From: Pseudomonadota bacterium
GTDB taxonomy: Bacteria > Desulfobacterota > JAPLJL01
Length of the DNA: 24,993 nt
Direction: 5' to 3'
Assembly (NCBI GenBank): GCA_026388615.1
Contig: JAPLJL010000023.1
Location: forward strand, 1-24,993
The position numbers and the translations under genes were made by a program. Position 1 is the stretch's first letter. Each line of letters begins with the position of its first letter. The notes beneath the pieces are model-generated. The model worked only from the letters and a program-made list of their open reading frames with translations. It did no database searches and had not been told where the DNA came from. Positions 1 to 22,939 of the stretch are shown here, piece by piece.

Positions 1-120
1 GATTTATCCCGTTTATCCCGAGAAGAATCGAGGGAAGCATGTTCGTTTCAATCAGTATAGACATAGCGAGGGACAGCGCCCTCCGGCTCTTTGAACTGTT
101 GGAATCGAAATAGGAAAAAC
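1..120 (+). repeat. Direct repeat copy 1 (may extend upstream of the window); 117/120 identical to 1598..1717
   Basis: Direct comparison; differences only at positions 80, 96 and 101 (vs 1677, 1693, 1698). Weak similarity continues about 25 bp further (TCGG.CTTC...GAGGA). Confidence 0.97.
39..113 (+). CDS. Putative 24-aa small protein MFVSISIDIARDSALRLFELLESK (copy 1), resembling the C-terminus of the adjacent oxidoreductase
   Basis: GAGGGA SD-like motif just before ATG; TAG stop; all 3 differences from copy 2 are synonymous; aligns with IGGELAADAALRLFEILEST. Confidence 0.5.
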   Translation: MFVSISIDIARDSALRLFELLESK

Positions 121-182
121 CAGGGCGATCGGACTTCCCCGAGGACAAAAAAGGTCAGACTTAAAAGGAGGGAACCGCGTTT

Positions 183-1583
183 ATGAGCAAAAAGAAAGTA
201 GTTATCATCGGCAGCGGAATCGGCGGATCGGGCGTGGGCGCGCTCCTGGCGCATTCAGGGAATTATGAAGTTTCTCTTTACGAACGCAACAAACTGATCG
301 GCGGACGCTTCGCTTCTTACGAAAAGGACGGCTTTAGATTCGATATCGGGTGCCATTTAATCGCCAATTGTGACAAAGGTAACCTGGGGCGGATTCTCAC
401 CCTGGTAGGTCATCCCGATTGGGTGGAGTGGCATTATGCGGTCAAGCCCGCGCCCGGAATCAACTTCAAGGGCAAGCGGGTGCGCTTCCCCAAGGAAATA
501 GACGGCCTCGGCCTTCCTCCCGAAGAGGTCGGTAAAATCATGGAGTTTTACAACCGGGCCCTGAGCATCCCGGAAGCGGAATACGAGGCTTGGGACAAGC
601 GGAGCGTATATTCCCTGTTGCAGGAGTATACCCAGAACGAAACCGTGCGCTCGGTTTTCAGCCTTTTAAACCGCATTTTTTTCGTCATTTCGGACCGGGA
701 AACCCCGGTCGGCGAGTATGTCCTCTGCACCAAGCAGATGTTGTCGACTCGGAGTAACGGTTATCCCGCGGGCGGAACCGGCAGCGTTCCCGAGGCCTAT
801 GTTAAGAGCATCAAGACTGACGGCGGGCAGGTCTTCCTGAGCACTCCGGTCAGGAGCATCGCGGTGGAAAACGGCGCGGCCCGGGGGATTATCCTGGAAG
901 ACGGGAAGAAGATCGACGCGGATATCGTGATCTCCAACGCCGGCAACAGGCCCACGGTTGATTTCCTGGTGGGCCGCGGGCATTACCGCCCCGAGGTCCT
1001 CGCGCGCCTGGACAAGTACGAATACTCCGGTTGTTTTTCCATGATAAAAATCGCGCTGGATCAGCCGATCTCCGATGAGAAGATGGTGATGTACATCGGG
1101 CGGGATGATATGAGCGTCCTGGATGAGGAACGCCGGGCGGGGATAATCCCCGAGGTGCTGACGGACGTGATGGCGCCGGTGATTTCCAATCTGGATCCGA
1201 AAGCCTGCCCGGAGGGACGCCAGCTCATTATCGCCGGAGGCGGCACCTACCCGATGCCGGAAAAGCCGGACAGCGCCTGGTTCAAGAAACTGGAAGCGTC
1301 CTTGTTTAATGCGGTCAAGATTATTTATCCCGGCATCGAGAAACACATCATGTGGACAAACTTTACCGCCAGCCGGGAAATCGACAATATGTTCGGCGAG
1401 GGCGGCAACATCGTCGGGATCGGCCAGAAAATCGGCCAGGTCGGCCCGGACCGCCCCTTCCTGGTGGACCCCTACGTCAAGAACCTCTACCACTGCAGCG
1501 CGGACTCCGGGGTGCACGGCATCGGCGGTGAACTGGCAGCGGATGCTGCACTCAGGCTTTTCGAGATTCTCGAGTCAACGTAG
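183..1583 (+). CDS. NAD(P)/FAD-dependent oxidoreductase, phytoene desaturase / retinol saturase superfamily (COG1233)
   Basis: N-terminal Rossmann motif VVIIGSGIGG...ERNKLIGGR, FDIGCH motif, YPAGG..SVPEA, C-terminal KNLYHC; AAGGAGG RBS; 466 aa. Confidence 0.9.
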   Translation: MSKKKVVIIGSGIGGSGVGALLAHSGNYEVSLYERNKLIGGRFASYEKDGFRFDIGCHLIANCDKGNLGRILTLVGHPDWVEWHYAVKPAPGINFKGKRVRFPKEIDGLGLPPEEVGKIMEFYNRALSIPEAEYEAWDKRSVYSLLQEYTQNETVRSVFSLLNRIFFVISDRETPVGEYVLCTKQMLSTRSNGYPAGGTGSVPEAYVKSIKTDGGQVFLSTPVRSIAVENGAARGIILEDGKKIDADIVISNAGNRPTVDFLVGRGHYRPEVLARLDKYEYSGCFSMIKIALDQPISDEKMVMYIGRDDMSVLDEERRAGIIPEVLTDVMAPVISNLDPKACPEGRQLIIAGGGTYPMPEKPDSAWFKKLEASLFNAVKIIYPGIEKHIMWTNFTASREIDNMFGEGGNIVGIGQKIGQVGPDRPFLVDPYVKNLYHCSADSGVHGIGGELAADAALRLFEILEST

Positions 1584-1597
1584 TATTAACAGCGGCC

Positions 1598-1717
1598 GAT
1601 TTATCCCGTTTATCCCGAGAAGAATCGAGGGAAGCATGTTCGTTTCAATCAGTATAGACATAGCGAGGGACAGCGCGCTCCGGCTCTTTGAATTGTTAGA
1701 ATCGAAATAGGAAAAAC
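1598..1717 (+). repeat. Direct repeat copy 2 of 1..120
   Basis: 117/120 identity with copy 1. Confidence 0.97.
1636..1710 (+). CDS. Putative 24-aa small protein (copy 2), identical translation to 39..113
   Basis: Same SD-like motif, ATG and TAG; only synonymous differences (GCC/GCG, CTG/TTG, TTG/TTA). Confidence 0.5.
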   Translation: MFVSISIDIARDSALRLFELLESK

Positions 1718-1745: not shown

Positions 1746-3044
1746 TCAGCGGGCGGCCGAAGAGAGAAGATGATGGGCGTAACCCGGACCCATCCTTAAT
1801 CCCAGGGAAAAAAGATTGGCCGGGGGTCGGCGGTAATTTTTGACCGGCTGCATCGAGAGGGCTTTCGCCGGGCAGAGCGAGGCGCAGACCCCGCACCCGA
1901 TACAGCGTTCCCGGCGGTATTCCCATCCGTTTTCACCCAGAACTTGAGCCCCCATCGGACACTTCTGCTGGCATCGGCCGCAGCGGACGCACTTGCTCTC
2001 ATCCCGCTGGGGCCGGAAATGGGGAGGGGCGATCAGGGCGGGGATGTTGAACTTGTTAATGGTCCGGAGGATGAGGCAGCAGCACCCGCAGCAGGAACAG
2101 GTGTAATTGGGCAAATTGAAATCAATATTTATCGAGAAAGTCGCCAGCCCGGCGGCGTTGGCTTTCATTTTTATGTCCAGGGCTTCGGAACGGTCCACCC
2201 GGCGCTGGAAATTCCGGGAGAGCATGAAATCCGCGACCGGCCCGATCGACATGCAGGTTTCCCGGGGGAGGCCGCAGTCGTGGCCGGCATAGGCCTGGGA
2301 CTGGCGGCACTGGCAGAAGCCCACGCCGAAGCTCGAGTTTTCCTTCAGCATTTCGGTCAGGAGGTCGGAGGGCAGGGCGGCGGGAACGGCGTCGATGGTT
2401 TCATGTACCGGGATGTACCGGATCATGGGGAGGGGTTTGTCCAGATAATTGACCATATAGCCGGTATTGTAAACCCGCTCAAAAAGCTGTCCGAAACGGC
2501 GATGCCATTCATCATCATTTCCGCTCATCATCACCATTTCGAATGTTCCCGGGACGATGGGCATCAGGCCGTAGCGGAAGGGTTCCTCGGGCGCGGTGAA
2601 GGTAAGATTATCCCGGCGGTCGGAAATATAAGAGAGGATCTTTTCCGGCTCACCTTTTCCGAAGACGATCAGGGCCCGTTTTTCGTTAGCCAGGCGGTTG
2701 AGGATGGCGGTGACTTCCTCCAGGGGCCGTTTCGCCTGGCGCGCTACGGAACGCGCGGTTTTACCGTAAATCAGGGGAAGGTATTGAACTATTTCCGCCT
2801 CTTCCGGGGTGTATAAATGGACGATCAGCTCCAGGAGCTCCTGCGAAGGGGGGGGACCGATCAGGATCTTCTGGGAATAAAACTCGACGATTTTAAGGTA
2901 GGCCGGAGTGGCCCCGGGATTGGCGGCGCCCAGTTTCCGGATTTCCTTGAATCCACAGCCGCTGAGGAGGGCGGGATAGGCGGAAGCGGCCAGCGAGAGC
3001 TTCAGGAAATCTCGGCGGTTTAAATTTTGAGAAGATCCCGGCAT
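1746..3044 (-). CDS. Uncharacterised multi-[4Fe-4S] protein with twin-arginine (Tat) lipoprotein signal
   Basis: NRRDFLK Tat motif and LSGC lipobox; CQCR...C...C, CSCCGCCC and two CxxCxxCxxxCP motifs; paralog of 6044..6913 and 10050..11135. Confidence 0.85.
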   Translation of the reverse strand: MPGSSQNLNRRDFLKLSLAASAYPALLSGCGFKEIRKLGAANPGATPAYLKIVEFYSQKILIGPPPSQELLELIVHLYTPEEAEIVQYLPLIYGKTARSVARQAKRPLEEVTAILNRLANEKRALIVFGKGEPEKILSYISDRRDNLTFTAPEEPFRYGLMPIVPGTFEMVMMSGNDDEWHRRFGQLFERVYNTGYMVNYLDKPLPMIRYIPVHETIDAVPAALPSDLLTEMLKENSSFGVGFCQCRQSQAYAGHDCGLPRETCMSIGPVADFMLSRNFQRRVDRSEALDIKMKANAAGLATFSINIDFNLPNYTCSCCGCCCLILRTINKFNIPALIAPPHFRPQRDESKCVRCGRCQQKCPMGAQVLGENGWEYRRERCIGCGVCASLCPAKALSMQPVKNYRRPPANLFSLGLRMGPGYAHHLLSSAAR

Positions 3045-3386: not shown

Positions 3387-4421
3387 ATGAAAAAAATCAT
3401 ATTCTGTCTAGCCGTATTTGCTTTCACTTGTTCCATTCTCCCCTCAATTTCCCGGGCCGCCGAGCAGAAAGCCAAATACGTAATGAAAATGGCGGCCATC
3501 TCCCCCAATGGGACCAGCTGGGCCGACTCCGCGGCCAAGGTCAAAGCCTATGTCGAAGAGAAAACCCAGGGGCAGGTAAAGGTTACCTGGTATTTAGGGC
3601 AAGTGATGGGGGATGAACCGGATGAAATCCGGAAAATCAGGCTGGGACAGCTCCAGGGAGCCGGTTTTACCTTGATGGGCATGGGCCAGATTGACCCGGC
3701 CTTCAAGGTTCTGGAAATGCCTTTTTTGCTGCAGAATACCGACGATCTGGATTTGGTGATGGAGAAAATGAAACCGACCTTTGTCCGCATGTTCGAAGCC
3801 AAGGGATTCGTGCTGGCGGGGTTTCTGGATGTGGGGTTTATTTATTTATTCACCCAGGAGCCCATCATCACGCTTGATCAGCTGCCCAAATTCAAAATGT
3901 GGGCCTGGACAACCGAGTCGGTGATGGGCACCTTCCTCCGCCAGGTCGGGTTCCAGAATATTATTACCACCCCGCTGACCGAAACCCTGACCGCCCTTCA
4001 GACGGGGATGGTGAATGCTTTTTATTCCCCTCTTTACGCCGTAGTCGGCCTGCAATGGTATACCCAGGCCAAATACATTTCCAATTTTACCTTCGGCTAC
4101 ACCCCCGCCGCGATCCTGATGGACAAGAAATTCTACGATTCCCTGCCCCCGCAATTCCAAAAAATCGTCATGGACGCCTGGAACCGGTATCTTCCCGAAT
4201 TGGTCCGCCTGACCAGGGAAGAAAACGCCAATGCTTATAAAAACATGCTGGCCCGCGGGATCAAGGTCGGCCAGACCCCGAACGAAGTGATCGAGGAAAT
4301 TCAGAAAAGGGTTTTCCCGCTCCGCCGCGAACTGGCGGGAAAATATTATCCCGAGGAGCTCCTCGCCGAGATTCAAAATATTTTGGATGAGCCAAGCCTC
4401 CGGCAAAAAGAGGCCCGGTAA
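3387..4421 (+). CDS. TRAP transporter solute-binding protein, DctP family (TPAT/TatP-like subgroup)
   Basis: Signal peptide MKKIIFCLAVFAF...SRA; motifs MAAISPNGTSW, VMGDEPDEIRKIRLGQLQG, TALQTGMVNA. Start moved to the third Met of ORF 3282..4421. Confidence 0.88.
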   Translation: MKKIIFCLAVFAFTCSILPSISRAAEQKAKYVMKMAAISPNGTSWADSAAKVKAYVEEKTQGQVKVTWYLGQVMGDEPDEIRKIRLGQLQGAGFTLMGMGQIDPAFKVLEMPFLLQNTDDLDLVMEKMKPTFVRMFEAKGFVLAGFLDVGFIYLFTQEPIITLDQLPKFKMWAWTTESVMGTFLRQVGFQNIITTPLTETLTALQTGMVNAFYSPLYAVVGLQWYTQAKYISNFTFGYTPAAILMDKKFYDSLPPQFQKIVMDAWNRYLPELVRLTREENANAYKNMLARGIKVGQTPNEVIEEIQKRVFPLRRELAGKYYPEELLAEIQNILDEPSLRQKEAR

Positions 4422-4522: not shown

Positions 4523-6019
4523 TCAGTCGATAAGCCCCTGGGCCAGATCGGAGGCGACGATCTCCGAGCACTCGATCCCGCTCTGGGTGTCGAGCTCGGT
4601 CCCGACCCCGTGTCCGCCCCCGGCGCAGTCCCCGGCGAAATACAGGCCCCGGATGGGGGTGCGGATGGAAGGGCGGTTTTTCCCGACCTGGTCGACGGTC
4701 TGGCCGGTGGAAATGGCCGGGCCGAATTCCTTCCCGATCCAGTTGGCGGTGAATTTCGTGTCGAAACGGTCGACCCACATGATGTGCTTTTTCAGGCCGG
4801 GAATCAGTTCGTCCAGGGAGTCCACGATCTCATCCATCCATTTTTCCGGCGGATCCTCCAGCTCGACGTCGGTGGTGGGGCCGGAGGAGCAGGCGGTGAT
4901 CAGCTGTTTTCCGGGGGGCGCGAGCGAGGGGTCGAAATTGCTCGGCACCGGGGCGTAAACCGCCGTCACCTCCGGGAATTTGCCCTGCATGATATTATTG
5001 TAATTTCTTTTCAGGTCGTCGATGGTGATTTTTTCCGGGTCAATGCTTTTGTCCAGAATCCGGGCCCCGAAAAGCGCTCCCGGCGCGAAGATCTTCCGGT
5101 CCAGGGCGATCTTCACCTGGAAGGCCACGCTGGATTTCTTAATCTTCTTCACCTTTTCGCGGTAGATTTCCGGGAAATGCTCCTCCCCCACCAGGCGCAG
5201 GACGCTGTCCCGGAGCGAGGTGGTGCTGACCACCGCCCGGGCGGGAAAGAACCGGCCGCCCTCGACCTCCACACCCTGGACCCGGCCGTTCTCCACCCTG
5301 ATTTTGGTCACCTTGCTCCCGGTCCGGAGGTCCGCCCCCAGGCCCTCGGCGGCCTCCAGGAAGACGGAAGGGATCCGGTGCGCCCCGCCCTGGGGATAGC
5401 TCAAGGATTGTTCCCAGATAACCCGCTTATAGCACCAGATCGCCTCCCCGGCCGAAGCCTCCCAGAAAGGAAGCACGAAAAACAGACCCAGGAGGGCTCC
5501 CAGGTATCCGACCAGGCGCTGGTTTTGCCCGATGTACTGGGACACGAACTCCTCCGCCGAGCGTTCGTTCCATTTTTCGATTTCGGAATCCGGCATCATC
5601 GCCAGGTCATGTAAAAACCTGGAAACCCCCACGAAATCCTTGAGGGAAATGTTCAGTTCCCGGTAAAGCTGAAGATAGAAGATCGGATACCGGTAGAGTT
5701 CCTTGGGCATGATAATGCTGTATCCCATCCCCTTCATGAGGGCCAGGTCGTGAACCTGTTTGAACTGGATCCGGTTCGGGATCCCCAGGCGCCGCTGGAC
5801 CTCCCCGAACGGGCCCCGGTTTCCCCGGGTGAACATGTGCGTGCCGATATCAACCTTGAAACCGTCTTTCTCGTAGTAGGAGCATGATCCCCCGATCTTC
5901 TCGTTTTTCTCGAGGATCAGCGGGTTGAGCCCGGCCTTGGCGAGGAGCGCCCCGCAGGCGCTGCCCCCCATCCCGGTCCCGATTACCGCCACGTCGTATC
6001 CGTTCCTCGAATTTTCCAT
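4523..6019 (-). CDS. NAD(P)/FAD-dependent oxidoreductase, phytoene desaturase superfamily (COG1233), second paralog
   Basis: YDVAVIGTGMGG...EKNEKIGG, VDIGTH, YPQGGAHRI, TPIRGLYFAGDCAGG; GGAGG RBS favours the Met at 6019. Confidence 0.9.
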   Translation of the reverse strand: MENSRNGYDVAVIGTGMGGSACGALLAKAGLNPLILEKNEKIGGSCSYYEKDGFKVDIGTHMFTRGNRGPFGEVQRRLGIPNRIQFKQVHDLALMKGMGYSIIMPKELYRYPIFYLQLYRELNISLKDFVGVSRFLHDLAMMPDSEIEKWNERSAEEFVSQYIGQNQRLVGYLGALLGLFFVLPFWEASAGEAIWCYKRVIWEQSLSYPQGGAHRIPSVFLEAAEGLGADLRTGSKVTKIRVENGRVQGVEVEGGRFFPARAVVSTTSLRDSVLRLVGEEHFPEIYREKVKKIKKSSVAFQVKIALDRKIFAPGALFGARILDKSIDPEKITIDDLKRNYNNIMQGKFPEVTAVYAPVPSNFDPSLAPPGKQLITACSSGPTTDVELEDPPEKWMDEIVDSLDELIPGLKKHIMWVDRFDTKFTANWIGKEFGPAISTGQTVDQVGKNRPSIRTPIRGLYFAGDCAGGGHGVGTELDTQSGIECSEIVASDLAQGLID

Positions 6020-15297: not shown

Positions 15298-16446
15298 ATG
15301 CCGCTCAAGTACACCGAAGACCATGAGATTTTCCGGACTTCCCTGAAGAAATTCTTCGAGAAAGAAGTCACCCCGCACGCCATGGAATGGAAGGAAAAGG
15401 GCGATGTGCCCCACGAGATCTGGAAGAAGATGGGGCAACAGGGGTTCCTCGGCTACTTCGCCCCGCCCGAATACGGCGGTTCCGGCCTGGATTTCAGCTA
15501 TTCCGTGGTTCTCCTGGAAGAGATGACCGGCACCTCCAGCGATCTTGCTCTCAACATCGGGGTGTGTAACGACGTGGCCGTCCCCTATATCCTCCACAGC
15601 GGTTCGGAAGAACAGAAAAAGAAATACCTCACCCGGTACTGCGCGGGCGAATGCATCGTAGCCATCGCCATGACCGAGCCCGGGGCCGGGAGCGACCTGC
15701 AGGCCATCCGCTCCACCGCCATCCGGAAAGGCGATCATTACATCGTCAACGGCCAGAAGACCTTCATTTCCAACGGCTACCACTGCGACATGGCCATCGT
15801 GGCGGTCAAGACGGATCCCAAGGCCAATCCTCCTTACACCGGCATCTCCCTGATCCTGGTCGATGCCGGCACCCCCGGCTTCAATAAAGGCCGCAAGCTC
15901 GACAAGATGGGCGTGAAAGCCGCGGACACCGCCGAGCTTTCCTTCGAGGACTGCAAGGTTCCGGTGGAGAACCTGCTCGGGGCGGAGGGGACCGGGTTCT
16001 TCACCCTGATGCAGAACCTCCAGCAAGAGCGCCTGGTCGGCGCCATCGGGGCCGTCCTGGGTTCGGATAAGATCCTGGCCCAAACCATCGAGTACACCAA
16101 AACCCGCGAGGCTTTCGGGCGCCCGATCTGCAAGTTCCAACACAACGCCTTCAAGCTCGTGGAAATGGCCACCGAGATCGAGATGGCCAAGGTGTTCACC
16201 TACAAGCTGATCGACCAGTTCCTCGACGGCGAAGACATCACCAAGGCCGTCTCCATGGCCAAGTGGTACAACAGCGAGATGCTGAACCGGGTCTGCTACC
16301 AGTGCGTCCAGCTCTACGGCGGCTACGGCTACATGATGGAATACCCGGTGGCCCACGCCTACGTGGACGCCCGGCTCCAGACCATCGCCGCCGGCACCAC
16401 CGAAATCATGAAGCTGATCATCGCCCGGATGATGGGACTATTATAA
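15298..16446 (+). CDS. Acyl-CoA dehydrogenase (LCAD-like subgroup), paralog A
   Basis: AIAMTEPGAGSDL, NGQKTFISNG, QQERL, REAFGRPI.KFQ, QLYGGYGYMMEY, IAAGTTEIMK; AAGGAG RBS. Confidence 0.96.
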   Translation: MPLKYTEDHEIFRTSLKKFFEKEVTPHAMEWKEKGDVPHEIWKKMGQQGFLGYFAPPEYGGSGLDFSYSVVLLEEMTGTSSDLALNIGVCNDVAVPYILHSGSEEQKKKYLTRYCAGECIVAIAMTEPGAGSDLQAIRSTAIRKGDHYIVNGQKTFISNGYHCDMAIVAVKTDPKANPPYTGISLILVDAGTPGFNKGRKLDKMGVKAADTAELSFEDCKVPVENLLGAEGTGFFTLMQNLQQERLVGAIGAVLGSDKILAQTIEYTKTREAFGRPICKFQHNAFKLVEMATEIEMAKVFTYKLIDQFLDGEDITKAVSMAKWYNSEMLNRVCYQCVQLYGGYGYMMEYPVAHAYVDARLQTIAAGTTEIMKLIIARMMGLL

Positions 16447-21790: not shown

Positions 21791-22939
21791 ATGCCGCTCA
21801 AGTATACCGACGAACATGAGATCTTCCGCCGCTCCCTCCGGAAATTCTTTGAAGCCGAAGTCAAGCCCAACGTGGAGCAGTGGCGGAAGCAGGGGTTCAT
21901 CCCCCGCGACATCTGGAAGAAGATGGGCGCCCAGGGGTTCATCGGCTACTGGCTGCCGCCCGAATTCGGCGGGTCGGGGCTGGATTTCAGCTACTCGGTG
22001 GTCCTCTCCGAGGAGATGGTGATTGCCTCCTCCGACCTGGGGGTGAACATCGGGGTGCATAACGACGTGGCCCTGCCCTACATCGCCCACAGCGGGACCG
22101 AGGAGCAGAAGAAGAAGTACCTGCCCCCCGCCTGCACCGGGGACTGCATCGTTTCCATCGCCATGACCGAGCCGGGGGCCGGGAGCGACCTGGCCTCGAT
22201 CCGCTCCACCGCCATCCGGAAGGGCGATCATTACATTATCAACGGCCAGAAAACCTTCATCTCCAACGGTTACGCCTGCGACCTGGCCATCGTGGCGGTA
22301 AAAACCGACCCCAAGGCCAATCCCCCTCATACCGGGGTCAGCCTGGTCCTGGTTGAGAACGGCACCCCCGGCTTCACCAAGGGCCGGAAGCTGGAGAAGA
22401 TGGGCCTGCACGCCGCCGACACCGCCGAGCTTTCCTTCGAGGACTGCAAGGTCCCGGTCACGAACCTGTTGGGGGCGGAGGGGGGCGGTTTCTTCACCCT
22501 GATGCAGAACCTCCAGCAGGAGCGCCTGATGGGGGCGATCGGGGCGATCGTGGGGGCCGAGCACATCCTGCAGGCGACCATCGAGTACACCAAGACCCGG
22601 GAGGCCTTCGGCCGGCCGATCTGCAAGTTCCAGCACAACGCCTTCAAGATCGTGGAGATGGCCACCGAGATCGAGATGGCCAAGACCTTTACCTACAAGC
22701 TGATCGACGAATACCTGGACGGGAAGGATATCGTCAAGACCGTCTCCATGGCCAAGTGGTACAACTCGGAGCTGGTGAACCGGGTGGCTTACAACTGCGT
22801 CCAGCTTCACGGCGGCTACGGCTATATGATGGAGTACGAAGTGGCCCACGCCTATGTCGACGCCCGGATGCAGACGATCGCGGCCGGCACCACCGAGATC
22901 ATGAAGCTCATCATCTCGCGGCTGATGGGGCTGCTGTAA
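21791..22939 (+). CDS. Acyl-CoA dehydrogenase (LCAD-like subgroup), paralog B
   Basis: Same motifs as 15298..16446; same length (382 aa), about 80% identical by manual alignment. Confidence 0.96.
   Translation: MPLKYTDEHEIFRRSLRKFFEAEVKPNVEQWRKQGFIPRDIWKKMGAQGFIGYWLPPEFGGSGLDFSYSVVLSEEMVIASSDLGVNIGVHNDVALPYIAHSGTEEQKKKYLPPACTGDCIVSIAMTEPGAGSDLASIRSTAIRKGDHYIINGQKTFISNGYACDLAIVAVKTDPKANPPHTGVSLVLVENGTPGFTKGRKLEKMGLHAADTAELSFEDCKVPVTNLLGAEGGGFFTLMQNLQQERLMGAIGAIVGAEHILQATIEYTKTREAFGRPICKFQHNAFKIVEMATEIEMAKTFTYKLIDEYLDGKDIVKTVSMAKWYNSELVNRVAYNCVQLHGGYGYMMEYEVAHAYVDARMQTIAAGTTEIMKLIISRLMGLL

Follow-up and report, generated by a model that had tools for sequence, protein, structure and literature searches.

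Recombination between paralogs as the probable source of a direct repeat and displaced gene end at a COG1233 oxidoreductase locus

The window analysed here, the first 24,993 bases of contig C293 from a MAG in 449 contigs that is 82% complete (G000), opens with a COG1233 oxidoreductase gene (hereafter gene B) flanked by a direct repeat, which is very probably the composite 3' end of two adjacent paralogous COG1233 oxidoreductase genes, left by recombination between paralogs. The normal end in this gene family is ...GIGGELAADSALRLFELLESK followed by a stop codon (the old tail). One paralog lineage, A, carries a composite end made up of a 13-codon substitute tail (D[AS]ALRLFEILES[KT] and a stop), an 85-nt spacer, and the displaced, non-coding old tail with a short stretch of 3' flank. 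The same 127-nt block (substitute tail plus spacer) would have been copied into gene B in this genome, likely by gene conversion, with the left pairing in the homologous gene body and the right pairing in the old tail. Gene B now stops at the substitute tail, with its former end 85 nt downstream; since 127 is not a multiple of three, that former end now lies in the +1 frame. The 24-codon ORF found in each repeat would be an accidental product of this arrangement, its codons 1-11 stemming from the spacer, its apparent SD site from a dispersed mini-hairpin repeat and its last 13 codons from the former end of the enzyme. As the enzyme is altered by only 1-3 conservative residues, the event was probably neutral.

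Table 1. Features at the left end of the window.
Feature	Position	Strand	Remarks
Spacer part of repeat copy 1	1..71	+	71/71 identical to 1598-1668; truncated by contig start; 3' flank of upstream paralog
Mini-hairpin module, TCCCGAG-N6-TCGAGGGA	16..36	+	contains the "SD-like" GAGGGA; 9-nt tandem repeat TTTATCCCG x2 just before
Mini-ORF copy 1, 24 codons	39..113	+	not conserved as a gene
Relic old-type tail 1, DSALRLFELLESK + stop	72..113	+	40/42 identical to functional end of G001_B
Gene B, COG1233/CrtI-like FAD-dependent oxidoreductase, 466 aa	183..1583	+	Pfam and orthologs
127-nt insertion or conversion tract	1542..1668	+	missing in orthologs; substitute 13-codon end + 85-nt spacer
New-type tail, present C-terminus DAALRLFEILEST + stop	1542..1583	+	near-identical to paralog A tail in G001 and L069
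85-nt spacer	1584..1668	+	14 nt, TTTATCCCG x2, mini-hairpin module 1613-1633, 34 nt of unmatched origin
Mini-ORF copy 2	1636..1710	+	+1 frame relative to gene B
Relic old-type tail 2, former coding end of gene B	1669..1710	+	41/42 identical to functional end of L051_B
Tat-signal 4Fe-4S protein gene, convergent	1746..3044	-	context; marks locus as orthologous to L051

Sequence comparison bears out the 120-bp repeat described in an earlier, sequence-only reading of this DNA: positions 1-120 and 1598-1717 are identical at 117 of 120 sites, and lower similarity runs on to about position 145. Because the window begins where C293 begins, copy 1 is truncated at the contig end. All three differences fall inside the last 42 nt, the first 71 nt being identical throughout. 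Both copies contain the 24-codon ORF (MFVSISIDIARDSALRLFELLESK) and, as that reading had also stated, every one of the three differences is synonymous in its frame. A third copy of the repeat (88% identical), of the further genome copies that the reading had suggested counting, lies 3' of a paralog (82% identical) on the 2-kb contig C405. The likeness between the peptide and the tail of the enzyme had been put at 11 identities over the last 20 residues; the match is real, with 12 of 20 identical, but similarity is limited to the last 13 (10/13), the first seven residues agreeing at the level of chance (2/7), as do the 33 nt ahead of the homologous stretch (12/33). Beyond relic 1, the 3' flank (114-145) is homologous over about 30 nt to the flank of gene B, 20 of its first 30 nt matching the flank of copy 2; relic 1 therefore derives from a complete gene end that reached beyond the coding sequence.

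Gene B has the composition of a COG1233/CrtI-like enzyme, with an N-terminal GxGxxG dinucleotide-binding fold and an amine-oxidase-type domain (Pfam matches Amino_oxidase, 1.2e-12, and NAD_binding_8, 5.8e-12), and the end ...HGIGGELAADSALRL... is common to 90 of its homologs at E<=1e-100. Its locus was compared with two same-genus genomes (G001 and G002), metagenome contigs (L051, L069 and L052) and contigs from sequencing runs (X1-X4). The related records come from uncultured sediment bacteria. Searching the related genomes returned an ortholog (95% amino acid identity) and two paralogs in G001 and one paralog in G002, while a metagenome scan found that L051 carries a 97% identical ortholog, the orthologs thus spanning 95-97% identity, and contig L069 was reached through a protein look-up.

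In the closest relatives the enzyme terminates in ...AADSALRLFELLESK and a stop, which is the tail of the "peptide". The genes G001_B, L051_B, G001:C15, G002:C59 and L052 end directly in the old tail (...HGIGGELAADSALRLFELLESK and a stop), and the database proteins P0001-P0004, P0006 and P0007 likewise terminate directly in DSALRLFELLESK. In L051_B and G001_B the bases ...AA are joined straight to the codons of DSALRLFELLESK and the stop, the 127 nt being absent, and a contig from the independent run X2 joins position 1540 to position 1668, skipping exactly 127 nt. Three unconverted alleles of gene B are thus present (L051_B, G001_B and X2). L051_B shares with the window both its downstream flank and the convergent Fe-S gene and therefore represents an insertion-free allele of this locus. 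In the window, a displaced 3' fragment homologous to the gene end does follow the substitute end (1542-1583, then 1669-1710). Along its length gene B is 0.85-1.00 identical to L051_B, and only over its last 60 nt does paralog A (identity 0.93) come nearer than the B orthologs (0.82-0.85).

The left half of the repeat is explained by contigs L069 and L051, which reach past the left edge of the window. In both, the end of an upstream COG1233 paralog comprises the substitute tail, a relic old tail and, between them, the same spacer; immediately after this composite end come a 69-nt leader and the beginning of gene B. Contigs from X3 and X4 show the same junction between upstream paralog and gene B, with a shorter spacer, and reproduce the arrangement of window positions 1-182. 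Given a composite-ended paralog directly upstream in L069, L051, X3 and X4, window positions 1-182 correspond to its composite end. A paralog ahead of copy 1, which the sequence-only reading had proposed looking for, is hence present in the related contigs, and its suggestion of a relic of a tandem paralog array came close to the data, with the refinement that the repeat is the composite 3' end of that paralog. The upstream donor paralog was found in the related contigs L069 and L051 only and none is assembled in G000 (82% complete), so that its presence in this genome is one we infer from those contigs. In L051 the upstream gene combines a body of the C405 type with a relic of the window type, a combination that could stem from real mosaicism or from a chimeric contig.

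The boundaries of the block are specific to each paralog. The left junction on C405 is at a different point: its substitute tail agrees with the relic on the same contig at 19 of the first 20 nt, and only the last 22 nt of the tail are of the substitute type, which points to a probable separate recombination event. Its counterpart by flanking sequence, C15 of G001, is without the insertion. A tract of perfect identity (71/71 between 1-71 and 1598-1668) is flanked by divergence of the kind normal between paralogs, the old tails differing at 3 of 42 positions. An identical tract, homology on both sides, paralog-specific junctions and unconverted close alleles are together what gene conversion, a non-reciprocal form of homologous recombination, would be expected to leave. 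The three differences between the repeats match those between the corresponding tails in relatives, and they are synonymous because they were inherited from real coding sequence. Between G000 and G001, relic and spacer differ by 2 substitutions in 75 nt and one deletion, which is below the level at synonymous sites of gene B (pS 0.22); repeated conversion is the simplest explanation for this low divergence, though some constraint may lie behind it instead.

We also considered a tandem duplication of the 127 nt and rejected it: what comes after the relic is the old flank (GAAAAAC...) where a second spacer would be expected, and only 12 positions agree between the 33 nt ahead of the relic and the 33 nt ahead of the tail.

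The origin of the substitute tail is a separate matter. It encodes 10-12 of the 13 old-tail residues, and yet only 24-27 of its 42 nt are identical to any old tail, whereas the paralog bodies are 81-83% identical. This is too much divergence for the tail to be simply the co-diverged end of paralog A, and it implies a tail older than, or foreign to, the split between A, B and C. The search of G000, G001 and G002 revealed no other source, the tail occurring only at the known composite ends. The gene bodies have diverged far less among themselves than the substitute tail has from the old tails. Such a difference, suggestive of an outside source, would suit a small mobile cassette, possibly tied to the mini-hairpin module, that inserts into the 3' end of these genes and whose surrogate tail keeps the host gene intact, a miniature counterpart of integrating elements with a replacement gene end. 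To this can be added that three paralog lineages (A, B and the C405 type) carry the block at their gene ends, with insertion-less alleles known for B and C, that its spacer contains a dispersed repeat module, and that the C405 block is flanked by a 19/20 direct repeat. We nevertheless consider such an element improbable: integrase, transposase and terminal inverted repeats are all lacking at or near the block, which occurs only beside these paralogs and nowhere else in the three genomes; the dispersed module by itself measures about 21 nt and is present where the remainder of the block is not; and the differing left junctions, with homology on their flanks, are as expected from homologous recombination. 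The interval between paralogs A and B in G001 is likewise free of mobile-element genes, containing nothing but a further FAD oxidoreductase and ORFs that belong to no Pfam family. There is a small chance that the 127-nt block is a self-preserving tail-replacement cassette spreading among the 3' ends of paralogous oxidoreductases, by conversion or by a module-linked mechanism. Were this so, a near-identical C-terminus would always be supplied and the insertion would be harmless to the host gene, and the diverged substitute tail would mark its foreign origin.

The spacer itself is heterogeneous. The mini-hairpin module has 22 exact-pattern copies in G000, mostly nested within other palindromic repeats, and 22 and 35 matches, from weak to good, in the two same-genus genomes G001 and G002; dispersal in many short, potentially hairpin-forming copies, as in REP- or MITE-like repeats, is thus seen for the spacer core only. 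The last 34 nt of the spacer match nothing else. An Rfam scan of 1-1800 gave no match at E<=1, the predicted RNA fold of 1575-1760 is no more stable than shuffled sequence (z -0.38), no promoter was detected in 1-1900, and terminator-like sites showed no enrichment, none lying within the spacer. A derivation of the spacer and mini-ORF start from the relic 5' end of a deleted paralog was rejected after local alignment to three gene starts (p = 0.34-1.0), and there is likewise no support for a paralog that had lost its interior and been joined start to end, the last 34 nt of the spacer being unlike any paralog 5' end.

The sequence-only reading had seen in the 24-codon ORF a translated mini-protein under purifying selection, serving as a decoy, competitor or swap-in for the C-terminal helix of the enzyme. 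None of the six sequenced copies has a stop in this frame, differences in codons 12-24, the last 13, are synonymous in 10 cases and non-synonymous in 1, and GAGGGA stands 5 nt ahead of an ATG in four copies. Two metatranscriptome runs, X19 and X20, contain small shares of the region. The start codon and ribosome-binding site are not, however, conserved across copies: the ORF starts with ACG instead of ATG in two of the six (C405 and paralog A of G001), a 24-nt deletion in G001_A takes out the GAGGGA site, and GAGGGA is in any case part of the 22-copy dispersed repeat. Nor does the excess of synonymous change extend over the whole ORF, codons 1-11 showing 2 synonymous against 7 non-synonymous codon changes among the six copies. 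In X3 and X4 the spacer is shorter by 48 nt at the upstream locus and by 49 nt at the B locus, and most of codons 1-10 are gone. Loss of the start, deletion of the SD site, loss of 48-49 nt of spacer and the free non-synonymous change in codons 1-11 together run up against the refuting conditions that the earlier reading had itself set. Its claim of conservation at the protein level holds for the last 13 codons, where it stems from the enzyme's coding end in relatives, and breaks down for codons 1-11. As the conserved half is a real coding end in paralogs and orthologs, no peptide is needed to account for the synonymous pattern. The GxGGELAxxSA stretch, moreover, we take to be an integral part of the FAD-binding domain in this flavoenzyme fold and not a detachable helix, which again counts against a mini-protein. 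A translated, selected peptide is therefore extremely improbable, and no new small-protein biology follows from the locus.

It could further be supposed that the +1-frame relic is a spare C-terminus, brought into use as an alternative end through programmed frameshifting close to the stop codon or through reversible recombination of the tails. Such a role would agree with a relic frame that in every composite copy stays open backwards across the stop region, with two spacer deletions that keep this frame (24 nt in G001_A and a net 48 nt in X3/X4), and with the coexistence in nature of alleles with and without the insertion. The sequence ...TCA A[AC]G TAG shows no obvious slippery or shift-prone site, however, and the 49-nt difference in the X3/X4 variant of the B locus disrupts the frame relation. 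The linker of a frameshifted form would be freely varying junk sequence and switching between two tails distinguished by just 1-3 conservative residues would alter almost nothing. We accordingly hold a spare-tail function to be very improbable.

Finally, the architecture might have arisen in assembly, through mis-joining of paralogs at shared sequence, with gene B really ending like its orthologs. The MAG is fragmented, C293 begins inside the repeat, the paralogs have conserved stretches in common, and in run X1 no contig covers 1-160 or certain other parts. Independent Logan contigs from the same run, though, reproduce the right-hand side with zero differences, over 1482-1624 (B-type GTG codon, new tail and spacer) and over 1595-2400 (spacer, B-type relic and downstream gene). 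A mis-join at the border of spacer and relic would have needed passage through only about 9 shared bases, and the same architecture recurs in C405, G001, L051, L069 and X3/X4. An artefact is unlikely and, on this evidence, scarcely credible.

Recombination between paralogs, the reading preferred here, has counterparts among known systems. In E. coli K-12, at the attachment site of prophage e14, as described in PMC13626634 (citing Hill et al. 1989), icd has received a substitute 3' segment and its displaced C-terminal fragment persists as the pseudogene icdC, loss of the intervening DNA yielding a slightly chimeric but functional gene. The likeness is close: gene B ends in a substitute segment, a homologous C-terminal fragment is displaced downstream, and alleles without the intervening DNA are of the functional type. 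The differences are equally plain, for here 85 nt and not a 15-kb prophage separate the two ends, integrase and attachment machinery are lacking, and the block resides among tandem paralogs, apparently moved by homologous recombination. The 85 nt between the two ends of gene B hold no integrase or element genes, nor is there a recombinase in the neighbourhood examined; with the defining integrase and element absent, the locus falls outside the icd/e14 class.

REP/BIME- or MITE-like repeats share with the spacer core the character of a short, multi-copy intergenic module, often nested in palindromes, but only about 21 of the 127 nt belong to the module and the whole block is not dispersed. With bacterial small proteins (sORF microproteins) the locus has in common a short ORF with an SD-like site and an ATG in 4 of 6 copies; it differs in that start and SD site are not conserved, the N-terminal half evolves freely and the conserved half is inherited from a larger gene. 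The case thus carries a caution, namely that a mini-ORF which seems to mimic the end of a neighbouring protein, and whose copies differ only at synonymous sites, can be a displaced gene end with an inherited codon pattern.

There is also a correspondence with gene conversion between paralogs, as in the cpsG paralogs (PMC13626634), where there is likewise a short tract of perfect identity within diverged paralogs, mosaic boundaries specific to each event, and presence or absence that varies among close strains. The tract departs from these in one respect: the DNA inserted with it includes a stop codon, so that what remains is a relic visible out of frame and not a silent patch. The locus is very probably an ordinary instance of paralog gene conversion leaving a gene-end relic, a known kind of event, and it offers a clean natural example of a stop-carrying recombination tract with its relic still visible and with converted and unconverted alleles side by side in environmental populations.

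The lineage to which the window belongs is strongly amplified for COG1233-type oxidoreductase genes. Seven matches were found across the whole genome of the window (G000), and a gene of this type other than gene B, the CrtI-like oxidoreductase, lies in the window. In the same-genus genome G001 at least five such genes lie inside 20 kb of a single contig, among them its ortholog of gene B and the sister gene, paralog A. Frequent neighbours of these genes are Cys-rich Fe-S proteins, TRAP-type binding proteins and an AMP-binding ligase. Elsewhere in the window, a long direct repeat in two diverged copies (74-82% identity, spaced by 6493 nt) points to another duplicated gene pair.

The substitute tail with which gene B presently ends and the old tail, its displaced former end, encode 13 nearly identical residues, and yet they differ at almost all synonymous sites, with 24-27 of 42 nt identical. 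This tail-to-tail difference is far greater than that between the paralog bodies (pS 0.35-0.45).

In L052, a contig resembling G002, the paralog carries CAG in place of its TAG stop codon (4390-4410), and the protein is therefore three residues longer, ending in ..ELLESKQEK*. The database protein of paralog A (P0008) is called at 487 aa with a 21-residue N-terminal extension (L069:2461-2523); its true start is likely the conserved MSKKK... at L069:2524.

In the related contig L051, the body of the gene upstream of B (1-1150) is of the type carried by C405, a 2-kb contig of G000, at 96% nucleotide identity; behind this gene come a spacer and relic of the window type, and next gene B. The C405 gene itself differs from this arrangement in both its relic and its downstream flank. 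Either the mosaic in L051 is a real product of recombination, or L051 is a chimeric metagenome contig with its switch inside the shared 39-nt repeat.

Other short repeats surround the C405-type paralog: a run of short, imperfect tandem repeats of the CCATGC/CCCATGAC type on its 5' side and, on its 3' side in both G000 and G001, several palindromic units of the form GTCATTCTGA...CCCGCC-N4-GGCGGG...AGAAGAATCC. The mini-hairpin module of the spacer, TCCCGAG-N6-(T/C)CGAGGGA, is present in 22 copies in the G000 genome, usually in the loop of differing larger palindromic repeats such as GTCATTGCGAGC...GCAATCTCGC and GTCATTCTGAGC...GAAGAATCTC. Its arms could form four Watson-Crick pairs, a tandem G.A/A.G and one G-C pair.

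Locations of the oxidoreductase genes, tails and repeats
Feature	Location	Strand	Remark
COG1233-type genes of G001	C34 (L035/L036), about 14.7-33.6 kb		A and B; a further gene between them; two at 33% identity
COG1233-type oxidoreductase gene	window 4553-5992	-	
Diverged direct repeats	window 15298-15832 vs 21791-22325		
Tail comparison sites	window 1542-1583 (substitute) vs 1669-1710 (old); L035:16319-16360		
Short tandem repeats	G000:C405:1-110; L053:2860-2910		
Palindromic units	G000:C405:1740-2040		
Palindromic units	G001:C15 downstream (L037)	-	
Mini-hairpin module	window 16-36, 1613-1633		
Mini-hairpin module	G000 contigs C29, C40, C74, C139, C165, C256, C275, C325, C423		and others
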